Source: Psammoneis japonica
Lineage: Eukaryota
Reading direction: 5' to 3'
Length of the DNA stretch: 42,417 nucleotides
Assembly (NCBI GenBank): GCA_008632985.1
Contig: QPGO01000222.1
Location: 70,206-112,622, forward strand
The first letter of the stretch is position 1; each line of letters opens with the position of its first letter. Of the stretch, positions 1 to 28,308 are shown piece by piece. Both the position numbers and the translations under genes were made by a program. A model generated the notes under the pieces. It ran no database searches and was not told where the DNA came from. It saw only the letters and a program-made list of their open reading frames with translations.

Positions 1-722
1 AACAGCTTCTGCGCCATTAACGTCGTCCACAGGGTGCTCTTCACCTTTTCCTTTCTTCTCTTCCTCCTCCTCTGCAGGATGCATGAACATGAAAAGAATG
101 ACACCAAACTTAAGAGCCCCGTCCAGGCGCCCAGAAAGGGCGGCACACAAGCTGTCGTCCACAGCACTAACCCAAGACGCCAAATCGGCGTAACCGGCGA
201 GAGACATTTTTCATCGATTGCTCTTTGAATGCCACCGAGTGCGCCTTTCAACTTTCCTCCGACCAAGAAGGTTCAGCGCAATGTTCACAGGCTCGGAAGA
301 GCCATTCCACGAGATCCTCAAATTCAGCGATTCAGTCCATTCCGCAATGTCCTTGGCATCCCATCTCACACGGCGACTTTTGCTGAGGATTTTGAGCGAT
401 CGCACTGCAGATCTTCATGATGACATTTCCAGCCCGAGCATGATGTGCCGTAAAGCATTTCTTGCATTCATTGTAAGCAGTGCTCACCTGGCATGGCACG
501 GGCAATGGGGCCCCACTGATGTAACATGACGCATCTTGGAACTTTGCAGGTTGACCCCAGACGCATTTTTCACCTCATTGTGACTGTCGTTCTGTCATTT
601 GCATTGGTTCGCATGGTTCGGTGCGCAAGTGAATGTAAAGGCAAACAGCCAAGAGGCGCGCAGGGGTGGCTTGCGGCGTCATTGTTTTCCCATCCACACA
701 AGATGAGCTCCATTTGTCGTGT

Positions 723-1510
723 TTAGTCAGATCGCGACAAGTCGGAGAGTTCTCTCGACAAGAGACTTTGAACAGCCACAGATGCGGATTCACAAGCTAA
801 CGTCATGGCAAACCCAATTTGAAATGTGATGCTGTAGGCACTCGCAGCAACAGACCCCAACAGAGCCTCAAAAAGAGGAAAGGAGGTGAGGCGTTGCCGA
901 CAAACAAACTTGACGTCTTGCCCCTGTGTTGTGCACGACAAACATGCCAACTGCCTCGAACAATGCGTGAATGCAGCTGCTCGCGCAATGGTTCTTCCCA
1001 GCACAAAGCCAGCAGACTCGAGGCATTGTGCAGTTGAGGATTTGAGCTTTGGAAGTTGCTTGAAAAGATTGAGCTCGATGCGTCGATTCAGAATCATCAA
1101 AAGCGGCATCAACGCCACGCATTGTGACACAGCCGTCCCAATTGCCACGCCCGCAGCTCCCCAAAGAATCAAAATGGGGTTCAATGCCATGTTCACTGCG
1201 TTTCATAGTGTGCTGCAAAGCAGCGGTGTCTTTGCATCACCAAGTCCTCAAAGGTGACAGACAATTTCAGAAGTTAGCTGGTCGGGATAGCAGCGCATAA
1301 CAACATGATCTTTCGTCCTTGCTTAGATTGGGCCAGCTCTTTGGAGCACCTGCCACGAAATGCACTGTTGGAAACAAGCCACAAGGTTGATGCAGGTGCA
1401 TCAAGAGCCCGAGCTCTCATGTAGGATGTGGCAGTCGCTGCCATATCACTGTCTTTCGATGCGCCCATGGCGCTCAGGATTTGTCCGGCAAAAGCAGCGA
1501 ATGCAAACAA
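723..1510 (-). pseudogene. MATE (DinF/DTX-like) efflux transporter, partial and pseudogenised
   Basis: MATE-like segments RALDAPASTLWLVSNSAFRG/LGDAKTPL, NMALNPILI..GAAGVAIGTAVSQ and ASAYSITFQIG. Two inferred introns (1247-1353, 867-947) have GC donors. In-frame TGA at 1203-1205. The ends of the gene are not resolved. Confidence 0.75.
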
Positions 1511-2136
1511 CCGAGCAGTTTGGGTCCTTCTGAGCTGGCTCCAAGAAAGATATCAAAAGCTCCTGTGGTGTTTCTGGTGCAACTGAAACTTTCAGTAGAT
1601 TAGAGTGGGCTTTGGTTCGTTCTATGATCCCTTTTTGCTTCAGAACAAACACGGTTTTGTCGAAGTGAATGAGAAGTTTCGCAGGTTGCGACCCCTCGGT
1701 TTCTCGTGGGTTTCTGAGCCCTCTTCAGAATCATACGAACCCAAATCGATGACAGAACGTTTCGTACTTCGTTTAGATGCACGATCATTGTGTTTGGGTT
1801 GGTTAGTTGCGTGCCGCTTGGCGGTGTAGCGGCGGAGGTCCTCATGGTTGATATCGGTGTGTTTTGATGGTTGCATCAATTCTAGTAGTACTTATTTTGT
1901 GTACGATTCTACGTGGCTGTTGAGGGGAACCCGGAAAGGTGTTGTCGAAGGAAAAAAAAAAAAAAAAAAAGAGAAACATCTCTCTCTCTCGAACCCTGTG
2001 GCATTTTGCCTCAAACAGCAATACAGTATACCGTCGGAGCGAGTTTCATGCTACCGGTATCCAGTAGACTACGCTAGTAGCTAGCGGTTCAAAATAATGT
2101 GGCACGCTCGATTTGTTAGATTTCTCGTGTCAATCC

Positions 2137-3254
2137 GGGCGATCCAGGAAACTTCGAAGACTTCGAAAGATTCCATATTCCATGACATTTCTTTAAATTA
2201 TTCTACGTGCAGAGCTCGTAGGTTGTTGGTACTTTATAAACAAGGGGCAATAGATAAAAGTCGAACAAATAATATGTTGTGTGTTCGAAGCTTTCGAATA
2301 TTGTTCGAAGTGTTCGAAGTTTTGTCGCAAACATATTGCCCTCCAAAGATTTTGATTTGAGTCACTTATTCTTCGAACTTTTCATATTGCCCTTTTGGTC
2401 ACTTCGAACTTATTCGAACAAAGTTCGAACTTATTCGAACAAGTTCGAAGTGTTCGAACAAGTTGAATTTTAATTATTTATTTAGTCATTTATATATCAT
2501 TACGATTGACAACCACCGATTTTTGGCACGCGACACCACCAAGATGACACGTTCCGTCGAACGAGTTCGGGCCCACCCGGAATAGTTACCAAGCCATTTG
2601 GGTACAGCTATATCAATGAGGTACTTGCGGATCATATATGTCTCATTGGATTGGTAATTCTTCGTGGTTGACAAATGAACGACGGCAAAGGATTCACGTG
2701 TTGTTTTGTCGTGCTTTGGCGTAGAAAACCTACGTAGGCCTACTCTGAGCCACAAGCGCGCGTAACAAGCTTGTAGTACATCATCTCGTAGCTGCCTGTA
2801 CTTGTCGCTTCGATTGTACGTACCGTATCTCATCATCTCATTGATACCGGTAGATGCTCGAGACTCGAGTAGAAGAGAGCACAAAACAACAACGTGAGAT
2901 GTCATACCGGTACCGCATCGCGCGTGTTGTACTGTACTACCAGCAGCACGTACATCATTCAGCTACGGATGTCATCGTGACATCATCATTCGTCTCCCTG
3001 CCTTACTTTTATTTATGAATTATAAACTTCGAAAGTGTTCGAAGTACTTCGAAGTGTTCGAAGTATTCGAACACTTCGAACAACTTCGAACACTTCGAAC
3101 TTTCTTTGGGGCAGTATAAAGGGCAATAGAGAAAGAAATTTCACAATGTTCGAAGCTTTTGTCCATCCTACACGAGGTCCACGTAGAGATATATTGATAG
3201 GAATTAGGAATCTCTTAAATATTTTTCGAAACTTCGAAGTTTCCTGGATCGCCC
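2137..3254. mobile_element. Non-autonomous terminal-inverted-repeat DNA transposon (MITE/Pack-type)
   Basis: Perfect 23-bp TIR GGGCGATCCAGGAAACTTCGAAG (2137-2159, complement at 3232-3254). Dense subterminal TTCGAA arrays at about 2280-2460 and 3028-3100. No transposase and no clean TSD. Confidence 0.8.
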
Positions 3255-3435
3255 CGTCAAAATAGTCCTGTTTTCCTTTCTTTCCTTCCTTTTCGTTCCG
3301 TTTAATCTCTATCTTCGTCCGTTTTTTCCGACTTCTCTATCAAAATCGAAAATCTCCCGACAAAACAGAACACACAACATTTTGTAGGTAATAGGGCCCT
3401 ACCATATAGTACGTTTTTGCTGTCTCTGTTATACA

Positions 3436-5462
3436 ATGCCTCAATCAAGCGCTAACCCCGTTATTCGAAGAAGAAAAGTCCCCAGTCTTAGACGAAAGGA
3501 CGGATTGATTCAGTACGCTCGAAACGAGACCAGTCAAGGCGGAGAGGATGGCATTCTAGAAGCGCTGTTTTCTCGAATCCCGCAACCTGCTACCTCGAGA
3601 CGACGATTCTGTGTCGATGTCGGGGCATGGGATGGCGTTCACCTTTCGAACACATATTCTTTGTTGGTTGGTTCGGATCAGCAAGATTCAGAGGCGAAAT
3701 TATGGAAAGGTGTCTTGATTGAAGCTGATACAGAACGTTTCCAGGACTTGACCTCTCTTCACCAACCTCTCGACAACACTTGTTTATGCGTGGCGGTGTC
3801 AGGTGACAGCAATGACGAAAACAGTCTCGTCAGATTGCTGCACGATAAGACCGATGCTCCTTCTGATATCGATTTGCTATGTATTGATGTGGATAGATGG
3901 CTCTGATTATTGGCTCATGCATGATGTGCTGAACAGTGAACTCTACGAGCCAGTGGTGATTTGTGTTGAATTCAACCCTACAATGCCTCAGGATTTGATT
4001 TACATACCTCCACATTCAGATTCAATACGACATGGTGCTTCGCTTGCTGCACTCGTTGAATTGGCTGAGCAACATGATTACGTCTTGGTGGAGACTACCC
4101 CTGTACAATGCTTTTTTCGTTCTGAGAAATGTTCACCAAGAGCACCTCACAACCACAATACCCGAAACTACCATTGAGGCATTATCGGAAGTTACAATGG
4201 GAACTTCCCTTTATCAACTCTACGATGGTACAATTAAGCTCTCGGGATGTAAGAAACTTCTATGGCACCGAGTACCAATCAAGGAGGAAAATATACAGAT
4301 ACTTCCGTCCGTCGAACGAACCTTTCCATTCGCGCCATCACCAACCATACCGGTACCTTCAGTCCATGACAAGGACTCGTTCAACGATGCGATTGATATG
4401 ACGAGCTATTGTCGCTCATTGGACATTAGCAATGGACAACAAGATACTGCAGCCATGGCAGAATGCGCAACCCAGCTTTGGAAGCAGCTTTGCAAAAATG
4501 GATTTTGCTTGGTGCGAGGTACTGGTATCGACACACATTGTGGCAAGTTGGCTCTAGAAGCGACCAGATCTTTTCTGGAAGCCCCGGAAGCCGTACGACG
4601 ATCTTGCCTCGCAAAAGACCGCGCGCGAAGGGGTTACAGTCCAATGTGTACCGAGAACTTTGCATCTCTTATCGGTGACAAGGCGCCCAATGATCTTGTG
4701 CGCAAGTTTCGAATTGGGCCATCTCACGATAAATGCCATGTCCCGTCGTCCCCTCTACTTCGTCCCAATGTATGGCCTACTGGTGAGGTTTGGACGAACG
4801 ATGATGCAACCATGTTTCGCTCTGCAATCGAATCCTACTATGAAGCATCATGTCGTGCTTCGCATGCTGTTACTCGAGCAATTTGTGACGGTATCCTCCA
4901 GCAACACCCAAGCTTGAAAGAATCAATGGAATCGTTACTTGCCTCTCCAGAACGTAACGGTGACTCGACTCTAGAATCGCAACAATCGTCTATTATGACT
5001 CTCTTGGGATATTCACCAGGCTCACGACACAAGAAGAAGCCACCGAAACCTCTTGTTGCACCTCACACAGATGTGGGCATCATTACTTTCCTTCTTTTTG
5101 ATGCCGGTGACAGTGCCACTCTTCAGAGAAAGAAATCTGGGAATGACAGATCCGATAACTCAAGCTGGGTAGACGTGAGGCTCCCCCCACAGGTACCGGA
5201 GGATCCAATCTTTGTTGTAAACATTGGTGACTGTCTATCCGAGTTGTGTAACGGTTTATTGCCGTCGACGCTGCACCGTGTCATGGCGCAACCTCAGGGC
5301 TCTATTGCTCGTTGTTGCCTTGCTCTTTTTGTCGGATTGGAGCCGAATCAAAAACTCGTATTCCCACAAGGAAAAGGTAAAACAAATGGGGAACACGAGC
5401 TAACATTTGAAGAGTGGAGGCGTCATCGAATTGCTGCGGCCCAGAAAATGCTCAGTGCATAA
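3436..5462 (+). pseudogene. FkbM/Methyltransf_21-like SAM methyltransferase fused to a 2OG-Fe(II) dioxygenase; two frameshifts (pseudogene or assembly error)
   Basis: SQGGEDGILE, CVDVGAWDGVHLSNT, IEAD, LLCIDVD/GSDYW, ICVEFNP, GASLAALVELA, then RRGYSP, PHTD (HxD) and VNIGD..NG..STLHRV. The frame changes at about 3891-3897 (+4 nt) and 4098-4101 (extra C). Confidence 0.8.
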
Positions 5463-6740
5463 AGGGGTACAATCCAGAAACCTGGTGGTTAGTTGAAGAT
5501 TCTGTCCCCGCGTCCCAGATGAGCGCCACGGACAGTAGTACGAGCAAAACGCACCCACAGCTCCTCTTTGACTGACTCCGTGCAGCAGTGGAATTCTAGT
5601 CTCCCTTGTCTCTTTTCCTCGTCCTTTTCCGACTTCACCTTATAGCTCCCAGCAAAGGCAGTTCCAACAGCGAAAAGGAAGAGATGAAGCTCAACGCCTA
5701 CACGGAACGGAGAATCATTTCTATCTAGGTGGTTGGCACTTGTCGCCCTTTATGTTGTCTAACGCTTCAAACTCCGCATTGACAACGACGTGCACTCTAT
5801 TTCTGGAACAAGACTGTTAAGGGATTGGTTGATTGATCCCCGGAGCTAAGAGTGGCAACGTTTCCATGTCGTTGATAAGCGGTCAATGCCCATCAGCTGA
5901 AGCCCGGGCAGCTTAGGGCACGGCGGCTTTAAGTAGAAGCAGTGGCTTCCCACATGTACATTCGTTTCCATCTATGGTCGACCCAGGTGCGGTTTTACAA
6001 AAGGCACCATTAGACTTCGGCGTAGAGGCTTTAAGGACGAGGTGCCGTCGGTTGAGAAGGGGCATGACTCAGAATAATCACTCCATGTTCTCGCGTTCAC
6101 CAACGTGAGGGAGACAATTGATTCAACAATGTCATTCCCGATGTCTGAAACAGTGGGCGTGTGGTGTGAGCGTTGAATGAACGGCACAAAAACGAGAGCT
6201 CTACTAGCTATCGTATTTCCATATTTGGCTTGTCGTCGGATAAAGCGTGGCCCGGCATGTTTCGAACGAGAGTTTAGAAGGGACTGAAGCGGCATCGAAA
6301 AGAAAGATCCTGACGAGATGAGTGACTAGGTCTTAAACCGTGTTCTGTTATCAGAGTTGGCAGAAACCAACGGAAGATCTGAGGTTGGTAGTTCCATTGG
6401 AGCTGCTTCCGGGTAGTAGTAAGAAGAGCAAATTGAGTCGCGAAGGCTTTTCCTGTGCCATGAAAAGTGGGGCACAACACTACACACTACAGGGCTATTG
6501 GCTCTAGTTTAGTAGCCAGCAGCAGACAGCGTCGTTGCTTCTGCAAGTAGCTAACAGTGCCATCGGCGAGTTTAGTAGCTAGGGCCCTCTAGCTAGCTCT
6601 AGGCTAGAGTTTCAATGGGCATGGTTCGATTTTCGCCCAACAGGTTTCACGACCAAAACTGCGACCAACATAATGACTGATTCGTGACGGAATTTGACGA
6701 CGACAGACAGGCTCATTCCAAGCCACGTAATGTAAGCTAA

Positions 6741-9079
<2,339 letters not shown>

Positions 9080-9263
9080 GACGCTAATGTTGGAACAAAG
9101 TAGTGCCCTACAACAGCAAACAGGAGCACTGATAGCGATGATTCGCCCACTCTATGTAGAGTGGTGTAGAGTCGTGTACTTTTTCAATCCTACTTATGTA
9201 CCTTACTTTCTATGAAATTGAAGCCTCTCATCAAAACGTCGCCTTCGCATGGCTTATCTGCAA

Positions 9264-10577
9264 CTAATCCACCTCACCGACAAGAAGAGGCCGGTACCTT
9301 TCCACACTGAAGGCTTGATGGAAATCCGCTTGCTCAGAAAATATCTGCTGTTTCTTCAAATGCGGCGACTCGTCGTTCTTGTTCTTCTTCACACGATAAT
9401 CCGCAGCCTGAATCTCAACTCCCAAGTCAGTCAAGTCTCCGGCAAATCGCACAGCACGGAAATACCCCCACAGACAACCATGATACTGTGATTTTTCCTG
9501 TTCACCGACCAGTGCGGGCGAGACAAGGGTGTTGTACCCAGGATTGTAGAAGAATGGCGAAGAATATCTACGTTTGACAGGATCGGTCCTGACACGATGA
9601 AGTGGGGCACGATAGCGCCCATTAGACCAAATCATGGCCATGTCTCCTGTATTAATTGTCAGCGCTCCCTCGACGGGTCGCACCGTGACCCAGTCTAGCT
9701 TGTCAAAATCGAACATGCTGCTATCAGCAAGACAAGGCTCGTGACGCGCCACCTGCAGTGAATGACACCCGTCATCTTGTGCCAAGACTGTAAGAAATCC
9801 GGCATCCTTGTGAGGCGAAATCCCCAAAGGAGGCAGTGAAGGTGGGGATTCCGTCTGGGGACACGGCGGGTAATAATTGATTCTCAGATAAGAGGTGTGA
9901 TTTTTCCTCATTGCCTCCAAAAAATCGCTAGCAGTTGGCTCCAAGTCGACCGATGCGATGGATTTCTCAATGGCTAACTCTTCAGGTTGCTCAAGTATTT
10001 TGTCTAAAACAAAAAGCCCCTTGGCCATTAGAGACGCAATTCGATCCGATAAGTGTGCACACGCTTCAAAGTAGTCGACAGTAACAGGCCGAAAGTCTGC
10101 CAATTCCTTCTCACTAGGAAGTTGGTTCATTCCGTCCAAGCACTCGTTGCGCTTATCATCATCCAATAAGGACCAGTCACGAGAACCTGGCACGCCTACA
10201 TCGATACACTCTTTCCAATCCCGACGCTGCTTTGTCAATTCATCGTCAAAAAAGCCTCGTGCATTGCACTCGTTACGTTTCCATTTCTTCTTCGTTTCAT
10301 ATGGTAAATCGAAATACAGCTCAGATTGCTTCCTGAACTTTTGTAAGAGAGACGGAGGGATGCCGTGATTTGTTACTTGGAAGAACCCAAAAGTACTACA
10401 GGCCGTTGCCACTTCCTTGATCAATTCCGATTCGTTTTGATTCGATAAATCAATGACTGGTACACCGTGCTCATACATGACTTCTTGGTAGGAGGGTCTG
10501 CTTTTGTTCTCGCGTTTAGTGCTGTCGCCTCCTTGGGTCGAGTCGTCAACAGTTACGGCTGCTGGCTTTAGTGTCAT
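9264..10577 (-). CDS. 2-oxoglutarate/Fe(II)-dependent dioxygenase (DIOX_N + 2OG-FeII_Oxy), about 437 aa
   Basis: VPVIDLS, ACSTFGFFQVTNHGI, LRINYYPPCP, HKD, INTGD..WSNGRYRAPLHRV and RYS. Start placed at ATG 10577; the upstream extension of the ORF is treated as an artefact. Confidence 0.92.
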   Translation of the reverse strand: MTLKPAAVTVDDSTQGGDSTKRENKSRPSYQEVMYEHGVPVIDLSNQNESELIKEVATACSTFGFFQVTNHGIPPSLLQKFRKQSELYFDLPYETKKKWKRNECNARGFFDDELTKQRRDWKECIDVGVPGSRDWSLLDDDKRNECLDGMNQLPSEKELADFRPVTVDYFEACAHLSDRIASLMAKGLFVLDKILEQPEELAIEKSIASVDLEPTASDFLEAMRKNHTSYLRINYYPPCPQTESPPSLPPLGISPHKDAGFLTVLAQDDGCHSLQVARHEPCLADSSMFDFDKLDWVTVRPVEGALTINTGDMAMIWSNGRYRAPLHRVRTDPVKRRYSSPFFYNPGYNTLVSPALVGEQEKSQYHGCLWGYFRAVRFAGDLTDLGVEIQAADYRVKKNKNDESPHLKKQQIFSEQADFHQAFSVERYRPLLVGEVD

Positions 10578-12632
10578 GTTTGCTTTGCAGCTGTCAGCTT
10601 CCAACACGTTGAACGTTGTTGCAATTGCGAACCCAGATGCTGCCACAAATAAAACACCTTGCTCGCACTGAGCACTGTTTTGGCTCACCCAACCAACACC
10701 GAGACAAAACAAAAGACTGCGAACATGCCTCCTGTCCGCTTGTCTGTCCCCGCCCGAAACACACGGCATCCCAATCTCCATCCCATCCATGGCGAAGTGC
10801 AGCGCTGTGCAGGGCAGAAGACACCCTGCCTCTTGCCTTGTGCGCCCTCTGCAAAAAGCTCCAGTGTGCGTGAAAGCACCAAGTCTGGACTGACTTGTGC
10901 TGTGCAGCACGTGATCTCTGGAAAAGCGCGACGCCCCTCCCGCCATTTTTGCCCTTCCGCCATTTTTGCCCAAGCCAAAACCAAACAGCACAAAGAGGGT
11001 CCAGCAGCACACCTTTCTTTTGTTGCTTTGTGACCAGCTTGTGCTGGGGCAGCACGCAGTCTCTGGAAAAGCATGGTGCCCTTCTCGCCATTTTTGCCTG
11101 AGCCAAGAATGAGCACAAAGGATCCAGCACCTTTCTTTTCTTGCTTTGTCCCAGCTGTCCAGCTGCTCTCCTCCCCCTCCCCTCTGTTCTTCTGCCCAAA
11201 ACAATGGGCGCTGCCCCAGCCACCCTCTTCCCCTGGCCATGCTCCCACCCAAAACAATGGGCGCAGCAGCCAGCTGGTGTGTTGCTTGGCACTGGCAGTG
11301 CTGCCATGTCAGGCTGTGTTCTTGGTTGGATGCTCCTCCACAAAAATGGAGCCTCTCACTCAGCAAGTTGTCTGGCCACCCTCTTTTTTGAAGATGCTGG
11401 TGGAAATGCATGACACGCCAATCTCCCAGGGTGCAAACAATTCTTTGGGCTTGCCATTTTGGCACAAGCTTGCCCTCAAAATCCATCAACTTTGCATCTC
11501 TGTGTCAGTTTTTTGTCTTCCTTTGGCTGCACTGCTGCTCACATTGTTGCCAGCTGCTGGCAACCCCATCCATGGTTTTTGGAGAGTCGACTCTTGTTCT
11601 GAGTCTGGGATGAAGATGTGGCATTGAAAAAAGATCTGAAAGTCAAGGGCTCAAAGCTGTGTGTAGAGAGTTGTCTCATGTCCAGAAAATGTTGTTGCTC
11701 TGACTCAGAACTGATCCATGCTTGACAAGATTGATGTGTTCTCAACAAGTGCTCCTTTGGTGTCATGGTCCAAGTGTTTTTGACAAGTGAAAACTCAAAG
11801 TGGGGAACAATGTCCAAGGAAATTTGGTCTTGCACAGTGCATGTGATCTTGACAAGACCAGTTTTGCACATGTCAGAAAGAAAGTCATTGTGGGTGGTGT
11901 TTTGTGCAGATGACAAACTGACGCTCAACGTGGAGAACACCCATGAATGAAAGAACTTTTGACTTGTCAGTTTCAGTTCTTAGAAGCAACAACAATGCAC
12001 AGTGCATCTGCAACAAATTGCTGGCACACACTTCATTTCTGACAAGAACCACACAAATTAATCTCGTTGACTTCCTTTTGCATTGGCTGTGTGCTGCTGA
12101 CAATTTGATTTGTGCACACCAAAATTTGGGTTTCCAGCAATGTCAACTTTCTCTCTTGCATGTTCTCATTCTCTGTCACCCACTCTCTTCTCTTTGCTCC
12201 ATTGTTGTTTTGGTTTGTTCCCCCATGGTCTTTTGCTGTCTGCACAGCACCCTGTCTTTCTTTGTTGTTCTGGCATTGTGTCATGTGTTTGTGCTCCATT
12301 TGGTGTCATGCTCCCACAGTTTGTCATTGAACAAGAGCCAGATTCTCTGTGTGACATTTGTCGCTTGAGTGGCACCAGAGCTTTGCCTGCCAGAAGAGAA
12401 GAGTGCATTGGAGTCATGAGTTTTGTGCACAATTGGTTTGGAAACAGTTTGGTGGTGATGATGCTTCTGCCCACCTTTGTGCAACATTGCAGCACCACGG
12501 TGTTTGCTCCAGGTGAAAGTCAAGTTGCAACAATTTGTCTGTCAAGGATGGGCAAAAGCATCAGTTTTTTGCACTGTTCTGAAAGCTGCCTGCTTCCATG
12601 GCATGTTTCCAACCTTTTGCCTTTTCTCTCTG

Positions 12633-12810
12633 CTTTTCTTTGTTTGGTTGTGCACAGTCCTTTTTTTGCTCTGCTGCTGCCTTCCCACAATGCCATCATC
12701 AACAAGATGCCCCAGGCTCTGCTTTTCTTTGTTTGGTTGTGCACAGTCCTTTTTTGGCTCTGCTGTTGCCTTCCCACAATGCCGTCATTGACAAGATGCC
12801 CCAGGCATCC
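12633..12810 (+). repeat. Tandem duplication, about 89-bp unit x2
   Basis: CTTTTCTTTGTTTGGTTGTGCACAGTCC...ACAAGATGCCCCAGGC at about 12633 and 12722. Confidence 0.85.
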
Positions 12811-13599
12811 TGTGTTTTGCATTTGTTGTGTTGTGTGGTGGCAATGATGTGTTTTTTAGCATGATGCTGAGCCAGTCAGCCTGATGGTCATTTTTGGTTG
12901 TTTTTGCAATTGCAAATTGTTCAAACCAACTGGAACATGAATGATTTGTTTGGTCTCAACCTCCAGCTGTCAACTTCATTTGAGCGATGTCGCTTCTTTT
13001 TGAGCTGGATGTTGAAATTGTTTGGGTTAGATGCAGTGTGCATGATGTGTTTGCAGAAGATTGATGTTTGATTTTCTGCCAGTGTGATCTTTGTTGGCTC
13101 TTGTCAAGAACAAATTTTCACATTTGTGCTGGTCCGCAGAGAGCTTGTTTGTTTCTGTCTGTGAGAGTGCCTCTGCAGCTGGCTGATCTTTGCAACAACC
13201 AATCTACACCCACACAGCAACCTTTGTTTTGGCTGCATTTTCATCATGGTTCAAACTCACAGGCAGGAGGTCAGAAGAGGCCATGGAGCCAGTTTTGTGC
13301 AGGTGGCATCAGACCTTTGCAAACAAAGGGGATCATGGAGCTGCTCAATTGGTGCCTTGATTGCTCTGCTGTGGCACTCACAGCAGTGCTGCCTTCAAAG
13401 AGCCACTGCACCAGCCTCCAGAGACAGCATTTCCTGTGCCAATGTTCTTCCTCCTTGCTGACATGTGGTTCCCCATGCCAATGCTGCAGTGTGCTGTTGC
13501 TGCAGCTGCACATCATCTTGCAGCTGTCAGCAACAACAGACTTAAGAAAGCAACTCTCAACTTCATGATGACACTGCAAATGATGGCCACTGCCAGTGC

Positions 13600-14480
13600 C
13601 CAACAACAGCAAACTGAGGGCACTGTTGGTGTCTGGTGGTCCCCAGGAAACTCTTTGAGAGCTGTGGTTGAACATTGCAAGGTTGAATTTTGTGGCATTG
13701 TGGCCTCATGTCACCTTCTTTCCAACAGCAGTGAACTTGGATTTCCAAAGTCAAAATTGAAAAGACCCCATGATGGTGCCAGCCAACCCAGCAACAGCAA
13801 GCTGAGAGTGCCGGGAGTCTGTGGTGACCCCCACAGCTGACGCTGTAGAAGCAGCTGCTGAGTGTTGTGAGGTTGATGTTGTGGCTGAATGCAACCTTTT
13901 CCCCAACAGCAGTGGTGCACCATTCTTTGAATTTTCAAACTCTGAGTCCCAAGTGAAAGGACCCTGTGATGCCACCAACCAACCCAACAACAGCAAGCTG
14001 AGGGCACTGAGAGCCCTGGCAGCCCCCCCCAGCAATGCTTTGAGAACCACAGTTGAGAGTTCCAAGGTTGATCCAATGGTGTTGTTTCCCCATGACATGT
14101 TGTCCCCAACAGCAGCAGCTGACTTTTGAACCTCCAAAATCCAGAGTGAAAGGACACCATGGTGCTGCCAACCAACCCAACAACAGCAAGCTGAGGGCAT
14201 TGGTTGTCCTTTCACTGGCACCCTTGGCATTTGGAAAAGTTCCAGCAGTCAGGGCTGTCATTGCGAACAAGGTGCAAGACATGGAGCCACAACACCCCAT
14301 GAGATCAACTTTGCAGTGCCAAACCACAGCTCACAAAGTGTCACCTGGGCCCCACCAGAAACTGAAAATGCCCTTGGTTTTCTGTTGTTGGGTTGGTTGG
14401 CCACATTGTGGGGTCTTTTTATTTTGGAGTTTGGGGGCTCCTCAAGTCTGCTGCTGTTGGGGACAAGGTGACAGGGGGGC
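13600..14480. repeat. Degenerate ~190-bp repeat units, the last one inverted (about 14230-14480)
   Basis: Recurrent TTTGAGAG...TGCAAGGTTGA...GTCACCTTGTCCCCAACAGCAGCAGACTTGA. The reverse complement TCAAGTCTGCTGCTGTTGGGGACAAGGTGAC is at about 14442-14471. Confidence 0.75.
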
Positions 14481-14499
14481 ACAACAACATCATGTCTGC

Positions 14500-17400
14500 A
14501 CTGTCTCCCCCTCCAATGGGCTCTGTTCTGAGGGAACCCAAAACCTGGAGCTGCGCTGCCTCCCTTTGGTGGGTTCCAGCCAGAGGGAACCCAAAAGCTG
14601 GAGCTGTGCTGTCTCCCTTTGATGGGCTCCCATCTGAGGGAACCCAAAACCTGGAGCAGCACTGTCTCCCTTTGATGGGCTCCCTTCTGAGGGAACCCAA
14701 ACCCTGAAGCTGTGCTGTCTCTCATCAACAGGCTCCCATCTGAAGGAACCCAAAACCCGGGAGGGAGAACCCAAAACCTGAAGCTGGGCTGTCTCTTTTT
14801 AATGGGTCCCTGCCAGAGGGAACCCAAAACCTGCAGCTGCAATGTCTCCCTTTGATGGGCTCCCATCTGAAAAACCCAAAACCTGGCAGGGAACCCAAAA
14901 CCTGGAGCTGCGCTGTCTCTTTTTGATGGGTCCCCACCAGAGGAAACCCAAAAAACCTGCAGCTGCATGGTCTCCCTTTGACAGGTTCCCATCTGAGAGA
15001 GCCCAAATCCTGGAAGAGTGCTTTGTTTCCCTTTGATGGGCTCCCATCTCAGGGAACCCAAAACCTGGTGCTGTGCTGTCTCCCTTTGATGGGTTCCTGT
15101 CAGTGGGAGCCCAAAACATGGAGCTGCGCTGTCTCCCTTTCATGGGTTCCCACATGAGGGGAAACCAAAATCTGGGGCTGAGCTGCACAACTTTGATGGG
15201 TTCCCATCTGAGGGAACCCAAACCCTGGAGCTGCGCTGTCTCTTGTTGACAGGCTCCCATCTGAGGGAACCCAAAACCTGGAGGGAACCCAAAACCTGAA
15301 GCAGTGCTGTCTCTTTTTAATGGGTTCCCATCAGAGGGAACTCAAAACCTGGAGCTGTGCTGTCTCCCTTCAATGGGTTCCTCCTGTCTGAGGGAACAGG
15401 GGAAAGAGGGAGCTGTGCTGTCTCCCTTCAATGGGTTCTCCATTCTGAGGGAACCCAAAACCTGAAAGTGCTTTGTCTCCCTTCAATGGGTTTGGTTCTG
15501 AGGGAACCCGATGCCTGGAGATGTGCTGTCTCCCTTTGATGGGCTCCCACCATTTGAGGGAACCCAAAACCTGGTTGTGCCTTGTCTCCCTTCAATGGGT
15601 TCCCATCTCAGGGAACCCAATGCCTGGTGCCACACTGTCTCCCTTTGATGGGTTCCTGTCTGAGGGAGCCCAAAACATGGAGCTGAGCTGTCTCCCTTTC
15701 ATGGGTTTTCATCTGAAGGGAAACCAAAACCTGGGGCTGTGCTGTGCCACTTCAATGGGCTCCCGTCTGAGGGAACCCAAAACCTGGAGCTGTGCTGTCT
15801 CTCTGTTTGATGGGCTCCCATCTGAGGGAACCCAAAACCTGGAGGCAGGGAACCCAAAACCTGAAACTGCGCTGTCTCCTTTTGATGGGTTCCCATCTGA
15901 GGGAAGCCAAAATGTGGGGCTCTGATGATTTTTAACGGGCACCTGTCTGAGGGAATGTCAAGGTGTTCCTGTCTGAGGGAGTGTCAAACATGGAGCTGCA
16001 CTGTCTCCCTTTGCTTTGTTCTGCTCTGATGGAACCCAAAACCTGGAAGTGCTTTGCCTCCCTCGAGCGGGTTCTTTTCTGAAGGAACCTTGAACCTGGA
16101 GCTGCACTGTCTCCCTTTGACAGGTTCCCATCTGAGGGAACCCAAAACCTGGAAGTGCCTTGTCTGCCTTCAATGGGTTTCCATCTGAGGGAACCCAAAA
16201 CCTGCAGCTGTGCTGTCTCCCCACAATGGGCCCCATTCCAAGGGAACCCCAAACCTGGAGCTGTGCTGTCTCCCTTTGACAGGTGCCCACATGAGGGAAC
16301 CCAAAATCTGGAGCAGCACTGTCTCCTTTTGATGGGCTCCCTTCTGAGGGAATCCAAAACCTGGAGCTGTGCTGTCTCCCTTCAATGAGCTCCTGTCTGA
16401 GGGAACCCAAAACCCAGAGCAGTGCAGTCTCCCTTTGATGGGTTCCTGTCTGAGGGAACCCAAAACCTGGAGTGACACTGTCTCCCTTCAGTGGCTTCTG
16501 TTTTGAGGGAACCCAAAACCTGGAAGTGCCGTGTCTCCCTCCAGTGGGTTCTCATCTCAGGGAACCCAAAACCTGGAGCTGCACTGTCTCCCTTTGATGG
16601 GTTCCCATCTGAGGGAACCCAAAACACAGAGCAGTGCTGTCTCTCCTAAATGGGTTCATGTCTGAGGGAGCTGAAAACACAGAGCTGCACTGTCTCCCTT
16701 TGCTGGGCTTGGTTCTGCAGGAAATCAAAACCAGGAGCTGTGCTGCATCCCTTCAATGGGCGCCCTTCTGAGAGTCCAAAACCTGGAGCTGCACTCTCTG
16801 GAACAGCCTTGACTTCCTTTCATGACAGTGCCTGCCCACCTGACAAGAACAGCAAGCTGAGGCCACTGGCAGACTCTGTCAAGTCCCAAGCAACACTTTG
16901 AGAGCACAGCTGGGTGTTGCAATGTTGATCTCACAGTGTTGTGGCACCATGTCACCTTGTCCCCAACAGCAGCAGACTTGAGCTTCCAAACTCTAGAGTG
17001 CAGAGATCCCATGGCAGTGTTGCCTGGACCAAGAACATCTGCCAGCACCAAAGGGCACTGGCGGTGTTTGGTTCACCCAGAGGAGTGAGACTTCAAGAGC
17101 TTTTGTGGGTCATTGCAAGGTTGATCTTGTGGCACTGTGCCCCAGGGCACCCTGTCCCCAACAGCAAAAGACTTGACTTTTCCAAATCCAAAGTGCAACA
17201 AATCCACTGGCGCTGTCTCCCTTCAATGGGTTGTGTCGTGAGGGAACCCCCAAAACCCAGAGCTGTGCTGTCTCACTTTGATGGGTGCCCATCTGATGGA
17301 ACCCAAAACCTGGAGCTGTGCTGTCTCCCTTCAATGGGTTCCCATCTGAGAAAAAAAACCTGGTGCTGTGCTGTCTCCCTTTGACAATGCACATTGTCCC

Positions 17401-18280
17401 CAACAGCAGCAGACTTGACTTTTCCAAATCAAAAGTGCAACGAATCTGTTGGCACTGTCTCCCTTCCATGGGTTCTGTTTTGAGGGAACCCAAAACCTGG
17501 TGGTGCACTGTCTCCTTTGATGGGTTCCCATCTGAGGGAACCCAAAACCTGGAAGTGCCTTGTCTCCCTTCAATGGGTTCCCATCTCAAGGAACCCAAAA
17601 CCTGGAGCTGCACTGTCTCCCCATCACAATGGGCTCCATTCTAAGGGAGCCCAAAACCTGGAGCTGTGCTGTCTCACTTTGATGGGTGCCCATCTGAGAG
17701 AACCCAAAATCTGGAGCAGCACTCTCTCCCTTTGATGGGCTCCCTTCTGAGGGAACCCAAAACCTGGAGAAAACCCAAAACCTGAAGCTGTGCTGTCTCC
17801 TTTTGATGGGTTCCCATCTGAGAAAATCCAAAATCTGGAGCTGTCCTGTCTCCCTTTAATGCTGGGTTCCTGTCTGAGGGAACCCAAAACCTGAAGCTGT
17901 GCTGTCTCCTTTTGATGGGTTCCCATCTGAGAGAATCCAAAACCTGGAGCTGTCCTGTCTCCCTTTTGTGGGTTCTGTTTTGAGGGAACCCAAAACCTGG
18001 AAGTGTCATGTCTCTCCCCAATGGGTTCTTGTCTCAGAGAACCCAAAATCTGGAGCTGTGCTGTCTTCTTTTGATGGGTTCCCAACTGAGAGCACCCAAA
18101 ACATGGAGCGATGCTGTCTCTCCTAAATGGGCTCACATCCAAGGGAGCTGAAAATGTTGAGCTAAACTGCCTCTCTTCAATGGGTCTTGTTCTGTGGGAA
18201 CTCAAAACCAGGAGCTGCATTGCATCCCTTCAATGGGCTCCCTTCTGAGATGGCCCAAAACCTGAAGCTGCGCTGTCTGG
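14500..18280 (+). repeat. 53-bp minisatellite, roughly 60 degenerate units, interrupted by 190-bp units at about 16800-17200
   Basis: Consensus CTGTCTCCCTTTGATGGGTTCCCATCTGAGGGAACCCAAAACCTGGAGCTGTG. GAGGGAACCC recurs at 14530, 14583 and 14636 (period 53). Confidence 0.95.
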
Positions 18281-18289
18281 GGAACAGTC

Positions 18290-19190
18290 TTGACTCCCTT
18301 TCATGACAATGCCAACCCGCCAGACAAGAACAGCAAGCTGAGGCCACTGGCAGACTTTGGCAAGTCCCAAGCAACACTTTGAGAGCATGGCTGGGTGTTG
18401 CAACATTGATCTCATGGTGTTGTGGCCCCATGTCACCTTGGCCCCAACAGCAGCAGACTTGAGCTTCCAAACTCTAGAGTGCAGAGATCCCATGGCAGTG
18501 CCAACTGGCCCAACATCTGCCAGCAATGGGCACTGGTGGTGTGTGGTGCAACCAGAGTGAGACTTTTCAAGAGCTTTTTTGGGGCACTGCAAAGTTGATC
18601 TTGTGGCACTGTGCCCCAGGGCACATTGTCCCTGACAGCAGCAGACTGGACTTTTTCAAATCCAAAGTGCAGTGAATCCACTGTGGTGCCAACCAGTTTG
18701 ACAACTGCCAGCAAAAAACATTGGTGGTGTCTTTGTTGAACCCCAGGTGAGACTTTGAGAGTGGTTGTTGGGCATTGCAAGGTTGACCTTGGTTTGCTGT
18801 GACAGTGTGTCACCTTGGGCCCAACAGGAGCAGACTTGAACTTCCAAGCTCCAAAGTGAAAGGATCCCCCTTGGTGGTGACAACCAACATTGCAGCTGCA
18901 AGTGGAGAACATTGGCGGTCTTTGATGGACCCCAGGTGACAGTTTGAGAACTGTGGCTGAGCATTGTGAGGTTTGTCTTTTGACATTGTGGCCCCATGTG
19001 TCACCCTGTTCCCAACAGCAGCAGACTTGAGTTGGGCTGAGCTTCCAAACTTCAGAGCACATGGATCCCATGGTGGTGCCAACCAACACAACAACTGCCG
19101 CCAGAGGGTGCTGGTGGTGCTTGGTGGACCCAGGGCAAAACTTCAAGAACTTCTGTTGGTCATTGCAAGGTTGATGTCATGGCAAGAATT
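18290..19190 (+). repeat. Degenerate ~190-bp tandem repeat, about 5 units (same family as 13600-14480 and 16800-17200)
   Basis: Anchor motif recurs at about 18378, 18566, 18753, 18943 and 19141. Confidence 0.8.
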
Positions 19191-20287
19191 GAAATGATCC
19201 TGTCTTTCAATCCAGCGGGGCTGGACAAAACCAAGACCACATGAGCCATGTCTGTGCCACAGCTCCTTGACTTTTTGCATCCATTCTCAAGCAGAGTCAG
19301 AGCTGGCATGTTTTGCTGTGGCTGCTGACCAAATCTTGGGTGGAGAACAGGGCATGATGCATTGCTCCTGGTCCTTTTGATGATGACAGCAGAGATCTGG
19401 CTGAGTTGAAAGCAGACTCAGATTCAGACATGGAAGCCAAGCATCAGATTTTTTGCAATCAAGAGACTCTGCTGCATTGGGAGGTGAAAGAGGTGACATG
19501 GAAAGCTGAGGAAGTTCCAGGCAACAAAGCTGATGACTCAACCAAATGAAACAATGTGATGCACATCAAACACCATGTTGGAGTTGAAAGCTGGAAAGCA
19601 CAAGGATCTGTTGAGTGCATTGGTCAAACAAATGGGGTGAAGGCTTTGCAAGACATGGGCGCAAGGCAAACCTAAAAAATGTGGTTGCATGGCTTGAGGA
19701 GTCTGCCCCACACCTCTGGACCACACCTTGCACCAAACAAGGAACAACAACTGAAGGTTTGTGTTCACCAGTGCTGCTTTTCACATTGTCACACTGCACA
19801 GACCTTGCGCCCAGCTGGTTGCACCACACCCTGATTCTGCAAATGTGGATTTTTCACTTGGACTTGCTGTTGGAACATTTGGCACCAATGCTGCCACAGG
19901 GATTGCCAGAAGGTTAAAAACCTTGGCCATGTCACCAGTGTGTGCCCACTGGGAAGGTGCTTTTGTGAGTGGTGGGGAAATCCAAGGCTTGCACTGCTGT
20001 GCTGGATCTGATGTGGGCCTCCCACAACACACCAGCCAGATTGTGTCACAAAATCCTGGGCGGCAAAGCAAGGCTTCTTTCAGACAATGAGTTCAACAAA
20101 AGCGGAGCAAACTTGGAGGATTGCCAGGCAAACTGATTTGTGCAGTGCAGCTGAGAACAGTTCAATCAGCATTGGTGCCCAATTTGAGCAAGAGAGTCAG
20201 CAAGCACACAACAATGTCAAGTCAAAGTTGTTCTTGTTGGCAGGAGGGCGGCATGCTGAGGGGCACAACTGCCACAGATGCACAAGC

Positions 20288-20563
20288 TGACAGAAAATGA
20301 AGGCAAATGGCAAGAATTCAAACAACAACTCCTTGCTGCTGTCTAAATGGCAGATGAGTCTCCGCTCAGAGACCGTTGCAGGAGCCGAAAGACGTGTGGG
20401 TCGGCACAATCGGGCTACTGTTGTCATTCTTGTGAGCCTTGTGGCTCGAAAGCAAACTACATCGCGCGCGAACGCGCGGAACTAAAGCACACAAAACTGT
20501 GCGCGGTAAACTAAACAGCGCGCGATGCTTTGCGCGCATCCAAATCCTGTTCAAATCCTGTCA
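20288..20563 (-). repeat. 3' LTR (276 bp), hypermutated copy
   Basis: Aligns with 27120-27403 with 9 substitutions and one 8-bp indel. Confidence 0.96.
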
Positions 20564-23500
20564 CTCCCCAGTTTGCTTGAGGAGCCACAGAAACAGATTC
20601 GACTTCGGATGGAATGAAGTTCCAGAACATGAGGGGGCGGAGAAGGTCCCAGATTTGGGAGTGACCCCAATGCTTGCTGAGAATGTCAGCAGGGTTGCGG
20701 GAGCCTTCGATGAAGTGGAACTCAAGGCAACCAGAGGCAATTGCCTCACGCACACGGTGGAACGACAGTGCGGTGTGTCGCTTGTGTAACTTGGAGTGCG
20801 GGATGGTGGCACTGTCTACAACCGACTTGTTGTCACCGAACATGTAACTGACATTACGGATCGGGACGCCAAGGTGGCGCAGGGTGATGCGCAGGTCGAC
20901 AATCTGCTCAACACAATTCCTTGCGGCAACAAATTCAGACCCGCAGGTTGCAGTCTCCACGGTGGCTTGTTTCTTGGAGAACCAATCAGCCGGGAATTTG
21001 TTGAGGAAGTGGAGCATTCCCATGACAGAGCGTCCGGTGAGCATGCAATGGTGCAAGTTTGCATCGACGCAGTGGGTGGCAGTGACGAACTTGCCAAGGG
21101 GCGGTGGAGCGTCCTTCGGGATCATCTCTTCTGCTTCACCACACACGGAATGCATCCATTCACAGGCCGGAGCAGGGAGATCCGAATGGTCGGGCTCTTC
21201 CGTGCGAACGCGGAGAGCACCGTGTCGCATCTTGGAGAGGTGCCCACAGACGCGTTTGGCACGATCCAAGTGGCCTTGACGGGGCGCAGCTCGGAAGCTA
21301 GAGAGTGACATGACGGCCGTGGTAATGTCAATTCGACCAAGGGACACTGCCCATTGGAGTGAACCAACAAGAGACTGGAACTTGTGAATGCCATCGGGTC
21401 CCAGCAGTTCGGAAGTGTCCAGTTCGGGGTGGTCACCCTTCTCTAGAGGTGACAGGGCGTTGGTGGCAGGTTTCTCCCCAAACAGTCGGGCGCAGCTGTC
21501 GACCATGCGCTCGATGTACTTGCGCGGAGACAGGCACAAGGTTCCGTCGGGGTCCCGGGAAAAGTCGCAACCCAGATGGAACTCAATGGGTCCCGTGCCC
21601 TTGAGCTTGAACTTGTGCTTTTCCGTGAGAGTGTCGACGAAAGGTTGAGGGTCCTTCATGGCAATGGCGAGGTCATCCACATAAACGGCAATGTATTCAC
21701 AGTGGTCGCCGTTCCTGCGCATCCAAATGTCGGGTTCGGCGCGGCAGGGGAAGAAGCCTTCAGCTCGCAGGCAGTCGGCGAAGCGTTCGTGCCAGCGGAG
21801 ACCGGAGCTGCGCAGTCCATACAGTGCCTTGTGGATGACAAGGATGTGTCCTTCGAGTTTGCCAAATTCGGGTCCAGCTACAATGTAAAGCTTCTCCTTG
21901 GTGGTGGCCTCAAGGTGGGCATTGCCAATGTCGGTGGCCCATGTCTCCAGCTCGTTGAGTTCGGCCAGGAAAATCATCAGCCGAAGGCCACGAAGGGAGA
22001 CCACTCCGGAGCAGACACTGTCGACAGGTACGTCCGTGAGGTGCCCGTCGGCTACGAGTCGTGCCTTGTGGCGACCGTCGTGTTTCACGTGGTACACCAG
22101 GTGCACTCGGATCTTCTTGTGTCCCGCAGGAGGAGTGGAAGACTTGAAGGGCCCGCAGTCATGGAAGACTTCGTATTCGTCGAGTTGGTCCATCTCGAGA
22201 TTAGTTGCGTCTCCCCACTTGCGGTTGCCGTTGCGTTCGTCTAGTGACATGGCGTGTTTGTAGTTCCGGGGAACTTCGTATCCGCACTTGCAGCGAGGTG
22301 CAGTGCGGAAGGAACGAAGCTTGGCTTGGTTGGCCATGCGAAATAGTTTCTTTTGGCGCCTCGCGACAGTGCGGAACCGCTTCCAGCCATCCGTGTCGAG
22401 GAGTCCGTTCTCTCGTGCATAGATGGCACAGGTGACGGGGTCGTCCTTGGCGATGATGGCAAGAGGCTCGGACGTGATCTCCCCACTTTCCCATTCAAGC
22501 ATGATGTTGTAGCTTGAGCCTTTCCAGGTTGGGTCGTGAGGCTTCAGAGGTCCTTCGTGTGACACGATGCGTCGAAATTTCCAAACAGTGGTGTCTTCGT
22601 CTTCTTGCTCAATGTGATTCATGATGTCATTGTAGGCAAGGACTTCCTCGCATTCGTCATTGTTGACAGAGCAGACGAACTTAGTGAGCTCGGGATTGCC
22701 GTTCACTTTCCATTCGTGGTCTTCGACGGCCTTGACGATGCGAGCTCTGTGGCGTTGACCGTCCTCTTGTGGCTGCATGAGGAAGGTACGTCCAATGATG
22801 TCTTGCGGATCGAAAACTGGCATCTTGGGTGTCCTGATCTCCCCATCAGGAGAATCGACGGGGTTGTCGTCATGGCGAGATTTGATGATGGGTTCAGGTG
22901 GCTCCCCATCAGGAGGATCAAGACGCAGGTTTCGAACAGCAGGATCGGGGGCAGCGGAGCGAACGTTGGACCGGCAGAGGATCTTTTGAGTCTCGTCAGA
23001 TAGGATCTTGAAGGTCATCTGGTGGCCGACGTGCTCAGCAATGCCAACGAAGCGTCCGCGCAACTCACGGGATTCGGACGGCCAATCGGAGTCATCGAGG
23101 TGGAAGTACACTGGTTCCCACCAGTGAAAGCGAAGCAATGGGCTGATGTCCGGGGTGGATCCAGTGAGAGTCTCGAGGGGCGTGCGCCAGTGGAGACGTG
23201 GGGACGCTGTGTGGTTGAGTGTGAAGCACACGCACATGAGCGCCAGCAGCCATGTGTGGGCGGGCGAACCAAAACGGTCCATGACAGTGTTCGCCATGCG
23301 CTTCACGGTCTGGCAGCGACGCTCGGCAAAGTTTTGGTGTTGCTGGTGAGGCTCACTTTGCCAGCTGGAGATGAAGAGGGCGCGCAGGATCCCGAGCACT
23401 TTGTTGCTGATCTCAACTTGAGCACGGTCGCTAATGAGTTTGGATGGGGCACCACGTTCACGGATCTGATCCTCGAGTGTGTTGACAAACTCTTTGTCCG

Positions 23501-26180: not shown

Positions 26181-27104
26181 GGCAGACAAAAGTGGTGTCA
26201 GGACAATCAATTCTGGTCGGGAAGCGAAGGCAGACTCGAAACTTGGGTGAGAATGGACTTGACTTGAAACAGACTTGACTTGAAATCTTGAACCATCTTA
26301 AAATCAGAAGTCGCCGGGCTTTGTCATCCCGTTCGTTGTCAAGTGCTAAACTTCCCATCCGGGCCGTAGAGTTGTGCCGGCACGTCCGAACCCGCAGCCA
26401 GCGGCGCTTTGGGTTGCTTGCGAGCGGAGCAGCGGGTTGTAAACCCCTGCAGGCAAGCTGACTGGAGGTGGACAAGACCCCCGAACCGTTCTTATTTTAT
26501 GTCGGTTGGATTTCCCGATCAGGCTGGCCAGTTGACGCAGGCGTCAGGCGCTGTGGACGAACGAACAAACGCGGGAAAGCACCCTCGCCCCAACGCAGGC
26601 TGTAATCACGGCTGCTTGCTCTCACAGTCGTCCTCGTGGACCTAGTGGAACTGTAGAGCACCAGTAGTCCGGGGTAGATCAGGTACAATGGACTCGGTGT
26701 GCTTGTAGAGTGGCAGCAAAACCGCAGTCCGAAGAGTGGGTACAGGTTCTTGGCCGTGAAGATATGTATATATATATATGTCTTCAGCGACGAAGATCCT
26801 TGAATATGTAGGGTTCTTGACCGTTAACCGATGAATAGGTATATCAAGGGATGAGGATCAAGGATAGACTTGGATATGACCGTTGAATGTATGTCTTCAG
26901 CGATCAAAGGTAGTATAATCAATCCAGATATCCAGCGGTAAGGAGACTTGACGGTGACGTTAACTTCCTGCCGATGCCCTGGTATTGAATGCGCGTAGAC
27001 TTGCCGATGTATGTAGAATATATACGGAGGTCCACGTAGAATTGAAATAGCGTCGTTGGTAAATCAACGACGACGATGGCGGTTGCTCAATGGGTTGACA
27101 ATGA

Positions 27105-27119
27105 GCAAGACTGTTAATC
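27105..27119 (-). promoter_or_regulatory. Putative primer-binding site complementary to the anticodon arm of tRNA-Asn(GUU)
   Basis: Immediately inside the 5' LTR the sense strand reads GATTAACAGTCTTGC. Its complement GCAAGACTGTTAATC contains the tRNA-Asn anticodon loop CTGTTAA. Confidence 0.6.
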
Positions 27120-27403
27120 TGACAGAAAATGAAGGCAAATGGCAAGAATTCAAACAATAACTCCTTACTGCTGTCTAAATAGCAGATGAGTCTCCGCTCA
27201 GAGACCGTTACAGGAGCCGAAAGACGTGTGGGTCGGTATAATCGGGCTAGGGCCCTACTGTTATTATTCTTGTGAGCCTTGTGGCTCGAAAGCAAACTAC
27301 ATCGCGCGCGAACGCGCGGAACTAAAGCACACAAAACTGTGCGCGGTAAACTAAACAGCGCGCGATACTTTGCGCGCATCCAAATCCTGTTCAAATCCTG
27401 TCA
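27120..27403 (-). repeat. 5' LTR (284 bp), TpA-retaining copy
   Basis: Direct repeat of 20288-20563; carries an extra 8 bp forming TAGGGCCCTA at 27248-27257. Confidence 0.96.

Positions 27404-28273: not shown

Positions 28274-28308
<35 letters not shown>

Follow-up and report, generated by a model that had tools for sequence, protein, structure and literature searches.

A partial MATE gene duplicate in a TpA-depleted block of Psammoneis japonica DNA: probable TpA-specific A:T>G:C hypermutation of a host-derived sequence

The left end of the window, the 42,417-nucleotide stretch of Psammoneis japonica contig QPGO01000222.1 that was analysed here, raises the question of how part of a cellular transporter gene came to lie in DNA that has lost most of its TA dinucleotides. 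A sequence-only reading had described this part as a host-type MATE gene carrying the signature of a mutator. The answer that we consider very probable is that it represents an incomplete and defunct copy of a host MATE gene within a block hit by DNA-level, TpA-specific A:T>G:C hypermutation, as in the transposon blocks of the window. All positions given below are those of the window, and the block itself can be described as follows:

Positions 1..~1600, no strand: TpA-depleted block with near-normal CpG (dinucleotide observed/expected ratios, o/e), extending past the left end of the window.

Positions 1-1600 contain 20 TA dinucleotides, corresponding to a TA o/e of 0.21, with values of 1.53 for CA, 1.38 for TG and 0.76 for CG. 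In contrast, the right neighbours (1601-9600, analysed in 1600-base bins) are of normal composition, with TA o/e of 0.57-0.75, and the normal parts of the window as a whole range from 0.57 to 0.85. Analysis in 400-base bins demonstrated that the depletion declines between about 1550 and about 1850 and that the DNA is normal from about 1850 onwards. Introns and non-coding flanks within the block share in the loss of TA.

The transporter sequence in this block corresponds to approximately 196 of the approximately 550 codons of a MATE protein (1509..710), and both of its ends are broken inside coding exons. Its parts are arranged as follows:

Positions 710..1509, minus strand: internal fragment of a MATE transporter gene, 800 bp (phmmer, tblastn and homolog alignment).
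Positions 1354..1509, minus strand: exon piece 1, transmembrane helices of the first MatE domain (36-homolog alignment; Pfam MatE profile positions 89-136).
Positions 1247..1353, minus strand: intron 1, 107 nt, donor GCAGGT at 1353..1348, acceptor TTTGAG at 1252..1247 (letters; X2 contig joint).
Positions 948..1246, minus strand: exon 2 (codon table with homolog counts; sibling contigs).
Positions 867..947, minus strand: intron 2, 81 nt, donor GCATGT at 947..942, acceptor TTTGAG at 872..867 (letters; X2 contig joint).
Positions 710..866, minus strand: exon piece 3, MATE homology to about 710 (alignment; codon table).
Positions 710..713, no strand: left chimera breakpoint, 4 bases common to both sources (X2 contigs with loose ends of 255 letters each, before 710 and behind 713).
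Positions 1509..1518, no strand: right chimera breakpoint (loose ends of contigs: X2 behind 1509, X1 before 1518).

The 159-codon open reading frame at 1202..726 (minus strand) matches protein P0001 with a phmmer E-value of 1e-28 and has 90 homologous proteins at E <= 1e-3, 29 of them at E <= 1e-10, whilst the tblastn match of P0001 spans 1247..729. The named relatives of 1509..710 are algal MATE proteins, from Cylindrotheca closterium, Nannochloropsis gaditana and a cryptophyte, the nearest being a diatom protein with approximately 47% identity; a search for longer homologous proteins returned P0001 alone (50% identity). No homologs of similar length to the fragment were found in the protein collections, from which the sibling copies described below are absent. 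The full-length homologs P0005, P0007 and P0017 exceed the gathering score of Pfam MatE (PF01554), exon piece 1 remains below that cutoff (17.8 bits versus 24.9), and the sole Pfam match of exon 2 is to the related MurJ model (28.0 bits, cutoff 27.4). Where a complete MATE protein would have 12 helices and a frame open throughout, 1509..710 holds a partial sequence with in-frame stops: it is a MATE-derived fragment and no functional transporter gene. The description as a host-type MATE gene is therefore upheld for its first half, since the relatives are algal MATE proteins, but not for its second, since the sequence is an 800-bp chimeric fragment.

To place the fragment among related copies, contigs of three public runs, all from one sample, were compared with positions 1-2400 of the window. 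Run X1 may be the sample behind the window assembly and is thus not fully independent, and run X2, which is recorded only as 'DNA?', has spliced joints and is possibly RNA. Among the X2 contigs, those running along the MATE sequence depart from the window at 1509 and at 710, whereas two others span the junctions, record 11 (684-861) on the left and record 14 (1367-1704) on the right; further contigs match the window along the left flank as far as 713, or along the right flank starting at 1518, and diverge from it beyond these points. Because contigs diverge at 710-713 and 1509-1518 while others run across, the MATE codons in the window lie between unrelated sequences. By hand translation of the printed contig ends, the loose ends beyond 1509 and 710 appear to continue the MATE frame, in agreement with the next residues of P0001 on the 710 side. 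X1 contig depths over 1-1440 range from 37 to 135 with several versions represented, and depth is greater further right; the fragment and its flanks are multi-copy, with several versions of the chimera. Within the window, self-BLAST detected no second MATE copy.

The flanks of the fragment have features of their own. Open reading frames in the left flank (1-710) gave no Pfam match. One of them, on the minus strand of 1-210 inside the depleted block, has its ATG near 207 and continues beyond the window's left end; a more divergent version of this region, differing at 21 positions and by 5 gaps over 192 bases, is present in X2 contigs, and the frame possibly represents the beginning of a further gene duplicate. 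In the right flank (1640-1850), the window has CG at sites 1747, 1763 and 1764 where more abundant copies have TG or CA, which is CpG decay in the other copies and none in the window copy. Further right, the plus strand carries a run of 21 A at 1957-1977 followed by a CT-rich stretch, and a retroposed sequence forming the right flank of the chimera may have this run as its tail.

Of 216 sites at which the contigs differ from the window, 40 were listed, and the spectrum counts rest on the 31 of these, the best supported, that fall in 1-1600. At 24 of the 31, siblings have TA where the window has TG (15 sites) or CA (9 sites), a ratio between outcomes that is not significant (p = 0.31). The remaining seven comprise one G/A difference that is not at TpA and six changes of various kinds in a copy differing by 7-10%. 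When differences of the G>A or C>T type to siblings are considered, 24 of 25 lie in TG/CA context, against an expected 36% (p = 4e-10). By comparison, a pair of repeats in DNA of normal TA content (31.1 kb versus 38.5 kb), used as a control, has 10 TA-type mismatches out of 64. Classification by context and strand, the check proposed in the sequence-only reading, thus reveals the TpA bias that it had anticipated.

Ordinary divergence between paralogs, combined with codon or compositional bias and requiring no special mutator, might be thought sufficient, given that coding strands are somewhat TA-poor and that the most divergent copy differs from the window by ordinary changes at roughly half of its differing sites. 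We assign this next to no probability: TA-type changes make up 77% of the listed differences compared with 16% in the control pair, the TA o/e of the block (0.21) lies far below the approximately 0.6-0.8 of intact genes in the window, and depletion affects introns and non-coding flanks as well as codons.

The splice signals and conserved residues of the fragment provide a record of its ancestry. Removal of both introns gives a translation that is colinear with the 36 homologs (proteins of at least 300 amino acids, taken from the 90 phmmer hits, the 54 shorter ones being excluded), and X2 contigs contain a joint 1245>1353 that omits exactly 107 bases (shiftable by up to 2) and a joint 864>946 that omits exactly 81 (shiftable by up to 3); together these support the intron borders. 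Read directly from the minus strand, both introns begin with GC (GCAGGT at 1353, GCATGT at 947) and both acceptors are TTTGAG (1252..1247 and 872..867), as had been noted from the letters. At site 946 the window has G, whereas other copies have A, which makes up 168.9 of a total depth of 206.4 in X1 and 33.9 of 33.9 in X2, such that the donor of intron 2 is GTATGT in siblings and GCATGT in the window. The suggestion that this donor lies one TA>CA step from GTATGT is accordingly borne out, siblings carrying the canonical GT at 947. In P0001, the position aligned with the donor at 947 is a Val codon (GTN).

Two tyrosine codons tell the same story of loss. The codon at 1025..1023 (minus strand) is TGC in the window and TAC in siblings, with Tyr in 35 of 36 homologs (Tyr>Cys), and that at 965..963 (minus strand) is CAT in the window and TAT in siblings, with Tyr in all five of the closest homologs (Tyr>His). 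Sibling and homolog codons identify AFTHCS, proposed earlier as a Tyr loss, as a true one, and QCLES as another that had gone unmentioned. A similar proposal for TPLLCS fails, since four of the five closest homologs also have its Cys (1217..1215), which is ancestral; in the case of TLACES, 29 of 34 homologs conserve the Cys. Among the positions that the listed sites omit are 1352 (donor 1), 869 and 1249 (acceptors) and 1120 (Cys109), and for these the assignment is graded: the donor of intron 1 probably underwent the GT to GC change as well, Cys109 (codon 1121..1119, minus strand) is a possible Tyr>Cys, and derivation of the TTTGAG acceptors from TTTAAG seems unlikely, because this would be a YTAR site, a class in which none of seven was mutated (see below).

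The in-frame TGA reported previously does exist, at 1205..1203 in exon 2. It does not belong to the TA>TG/CA class: it arose from TTA (Leu) by a T>G transversion, is also present in a near-identical sibling copy and, judged by this comparison, is ordinary decay. A second premature stop, TAA at 725..723 (minus strand), precedes the end of homology. Since neither the TGA nor the TAA is a TA>TG/CA change, the copy is also decaying by ordinary mutation.

Pairwise differences by themselves give no direction, and repeat-induced point mutation (RIP) makes exactly TA from CA or TG. The siblings might accordingly have been hit by RIP-like C>T changes at CpA/TpG that created TA, leaving the window copy as the unmutated one. 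The outgroups speak against this, with Tyr in 35/36 homologs at one codon and 5/5 of the closest at the other where siblings have TAC/TAT and the window TGC/CAT, and the canonical GT donor belongs to the siblings. Moreover, a spliced X2 contig across intron 1, in which 20 of 270 letters differ from the window, has TA at all six TA-type sites listed within it, and the abnormal composition (TA o/e 0.21) is that of the window block. We therefore hold the reverse direction to be a very remote prospect. As the outgroup residues and the sibling donor fix the polarity, sequence comparison proves the direction to be TA to TG/CA in the window copy. By the same comparison, the GC donor of intron 2 is pseudogene damage and not a conserved GC-AG intron.

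A separate concern is whether the TG/CA letters are genuine or are systematic miscalls, for example of modified bases in long reads. X1 contigs contain only the TA version at 16 of the 31 listed sites, and the window letter occurs in X2 contigs at one site and is missing at 30. As the contigs by design drop rare, minority variants, the missing letters may reflect bubble-popping of a minority variant, and a strain difference or a fault in the assembly could also account for them. At the other 15 sites X1 contigs do contain the letter of the window, and X1 record 3 (depth 37.5) represents the version found in the window over 866-1060, with 0 differences across seven variant sites. The contigs also contain an intermediate version, which shares the G of the window at 926 and 965 and lacks it at 896, 920 and 946 (two of the five changes in 896-965). 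Finally, the flank rule described below and the borders of the block resemble those of the transposon blocks, and only a slight chance is left for miscalling. The graded versions fit stepwise mutation in place, which is suggestive of changes accumulating in the chromosomal copy. Taken with its multi-copy state, the TA-type differences and the outgroup direction, the host-type MATE piece supports the earlier proposal that the mutator reaches duplicated cellular sequence.

To determine the sequence requirements of the process, TA sites were grouped by their flanking bases on the plus strand and the number mutated was compared with the sum of mutated and surviving TA, mutated sites being taken from the listed sibling differences:

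YTAY (plus-strand class): 9/9 mutated.
RTAY (plus-strand class): 12/14 mutated.
RTAR (plus-strand class): 3/14 mutated.
YTAR (plus-strand class): 0/7 mutated.

YTAY and RTAR differ significantly (Fisher p = 3e-4). As these two classes are reverse complements of each other, the contrast is an effect of orientation and not of context. The hint of strand coordination in the sequence-only reading thus gains support in the form of an orientation asymmetry, and its observation that the plus strand of 1-1600 is almost without TAC/TAT while GTA survives is reproduced by the counts (2 TAC/TAT versus 13 GTA/ATA), a pattern that this asymmetry explains. The same asymmetry accounts for which Tyr codons remain, the two retained being the two preceded by C:

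Positions 834..836, minus strand: retained Tyr codon TAC, with C before it on the coding strand (plus-strand RTAR class).
Positions 1421..1423, minus strand: retained Tyr codon TAC, with C before it on the coding strand (plus-strand RTAR class).

Plus-strand TAY sites were changed at either base (13 to TG, 8 to CA). The asymmetry therefore resides in the orientation of the motif and not in the strand of the changed adenine, which is not what would be predicted for a simple single-strand deaminase with a preference for TAY. In normal genes the ratio of YTAY to RTAR on the coding strand is approximately 1.6:1, and this bias could contribute to the survivor counts but cannot be the source of the contrast between mutated and surviving sites.

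Elsewhere in the window, TA loss can be followed in DNA of different ages. The transposon blocks at 10801-20400 and 27601-29200 have TA o/e of 0-0.08 together with CpG o/e of 0-0.3, whereas the copia element at 20.5-26.3 kb is depleted of TA and normal in CpG, so TA loss is separable from CpG decay. By its composition the MATE block resembles the younger, TA-only class. Surviving TA dinucleotides are YTAR in 18 of 22 cases in the first exhausted block (10801-20400), as is the single survivor of 27601-29200, a result to be expected if the sites of both orientations are exhausted in these blocks.

The copia-type element contains an uninterrupted 1928-codon open reading frame on the minus strand (20511-26297; RVT_2, E = 4.8e-28), and over the element region (20284-27404) TA o/e is 0-0.5 with normal CpG. 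Its LTR-like pair (20284-20564 and 27116-27404) shows 10 differences, at 9 of which the right copy has TA and the left copy TG or CA, and the TA that survive in the element (YTAY 7, RTAR 22) have the same orientation skew as those in the MATE block. Block 10801-20400 also contains, at about 14.5-18.3 kb, a diverged tandem array. A 746-codon 2OG-Fe(II) oxygenase open reading frame (9264-11504, minus strand) has its Pfam domains at 9540-10463 in near-normal DNA and a 347-codon N-terminal extension that enters this TA-free block; the extension is probably a spurious frame opened by the loss of TAA and TAG. A weaker paralog of this oxygenase lies at 3999-5462 on the plus strand. Directly next to the mutated MATE block is a TA-rich, unmutated inverted-repeat element (2137-3254; arms 2137-2171/3221-3254 and 2283-2318/3066-3100) with GTTCGAAC-like subrepeats. 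Contig depth in X1 is 740-1560 over this element, indicating a high-copy family that has escaped the mutator.

In the mechanism that we favour, a partial MATE duplicate consisting of three exon pieces and two introns is joined at both ends to unrelated sequence, and chromosomal TA in the block from 1 to about 1600 has been converted to TG or CA with CpG untouched. Such changes have turned one splice donor, and probably both, from GT into GC and conserved Tyr into Cys or His. The motif would so far have been read in one orientation, with plus-strand TA-pyrimidine nearly exhausted, its reverse complement surviving and YTAR spared. By analogy with Bigelowiella natans, the chemistry may be enzymatic deamination of adenine on DNA (A>I, read as G). 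Targeting could depend on chromatin or silencing state or on repeat status, and the orientation effect suggests directional tracking.

The same base change could in principle have been made in RNA, by A-to-I hyperediting of the ADAR-like or fungal type followed by reverse transcription and insertion. A preference for U on the 5' side is typical of A-to-I editing (10.64898/2026.01.13.699255 and PMC11156358), and the A21 run at 1957-1977 is on the plus strand. This route is nonetheless very unlikely in our estimation, for the changes affect both strands (15 TG, 9 CA), the introns have been kept and are likewise mutated, and the depletion extends across both junctions of the chimera and declines short of the A run; stepwise change in place also fits the graded versions of the same chimera.

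If hypermutation acts on DNA, it may proceed in orientation-specific sweeps, each taking TA-pyrimidine of one strand over at least 1.5 kb with either base pair of TA changed. This proposal is tentative and, in our judgement, somewhat doubtful. Were it true, the activity would belong to a machine that tracks DNA in one direction, coupled for example to transcription or replication, and not to a freely diffusing deaminase; the MATE block would then be a half-finished intermediate and the TA-free transposon blocks the sum of both orientations.

The duplicated host-gene fragment serves as a witness to this process, because conserved residues and splice signals reveal its ancestry, which makes the direction proven and not assumed, and its sibling copies supply a spectrum site by site. 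Since the block is only half mutated, it displays a flank rule and an asymmetry of orientation that are no longer visible in exhausted transposon blocks, and these are fingerprints for finding the enzyme and its targeting. What is new here is the site-level evidence from sibling contigs, the half-finished block with one orientation, and the chimeric nature of the supposed gene. There are also implications for annotation, as long spurious open reading frames and seeming GC-AG introns arise in TA-erased DNA, and a TA-erasing process can rapidly inactivate gene duplicates in genomes of this kind. Both introns of the fragment now start with GC and end with AG, as do introns of the minor GC-AG class, but the GC of intron 2 is recent, derived from the GTATGT that siblings carry.

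RIP, as known from Neurospora and other ascomycetes, changes C to T at CpA in repeats and thereby creates TpA. The process considered here is likewise a hypermutation by transitions at a specific dinucleotide; it destroys repeats and duplicated genes, can leak into flanks and leaves a strong dinucleotide skew. It also resembles RIP in acting on duplicated sequence, the fragment and its flanks being multi-copy (X1 depths 37-135). The chemistry and direction are opposite, however, since TpA is destroyed here, and the loss of CpG in this window is a separate, later layer. RIP is treated in PMC7296669.

Metazoan ADAR hyperediting and fungal sexual-stage A-to-I RNA editing share with the present case the A>G change and the U/T immediately 5' of the affected A. 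They differ in that the changes described here are in chromosomal DNA, on both strands, and include introns and intergenic flanks. On the 3' side, RNA editing prefers G or a purine, whereas a pyrimidine is preferred here.

A full-text literature search found a single account of TpA-specific A:T>G:C hypermutation, a 2026 preprint on an unrelated alga (10.64898/2026.01.13.699255), and none in diatoms or other stramenopiles. Mutation-accumulation lines of Bigelowiella natans have, according to this preprint, a TpA-only A:T>G:C spectrum (Mettrop et al., bioRxiv 10.64898/2026.01.13.699255), for which the preprint proposes adenine deamination by an ADAT2-like enzyme. In both cases A>G and T>C changes occur nearly exclusively, all on TpA, giving TpG and CpA; they are confined to blocks and in the long term leave reduced TpA and elevated CpA+TpG, and the depleted coding sequences of B. 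natans, as reported there, include some host-type domains. The lineage differs, being probably stramenopile or diatom here, and the targets reported for B. natans are giant-virus and virophage inserts, whereas those in the window are retrotransposons and a duplicated host-gene fragment. Depletion reaches a TA o/e of 0.45 there, compared with 0-0.08 in the old blocks here, and the abstract, Results and Discussion of the preprint mention neither a flank rule (TAY hit, YTAR spared) nor an asymmetry of orientation. Ongoing activity was measured there in the mutation-accumulation lines, whilst the present case is one of sequence comparison. Positions 1-1600 nonetheless display the hallmarks of the Bigelowiella type, with A>G/T>C changes on TpA, TA lost and not gained, and a block set against normal neighbours, and in this instance the target is host-derived, duplicated and chimeric DNA.
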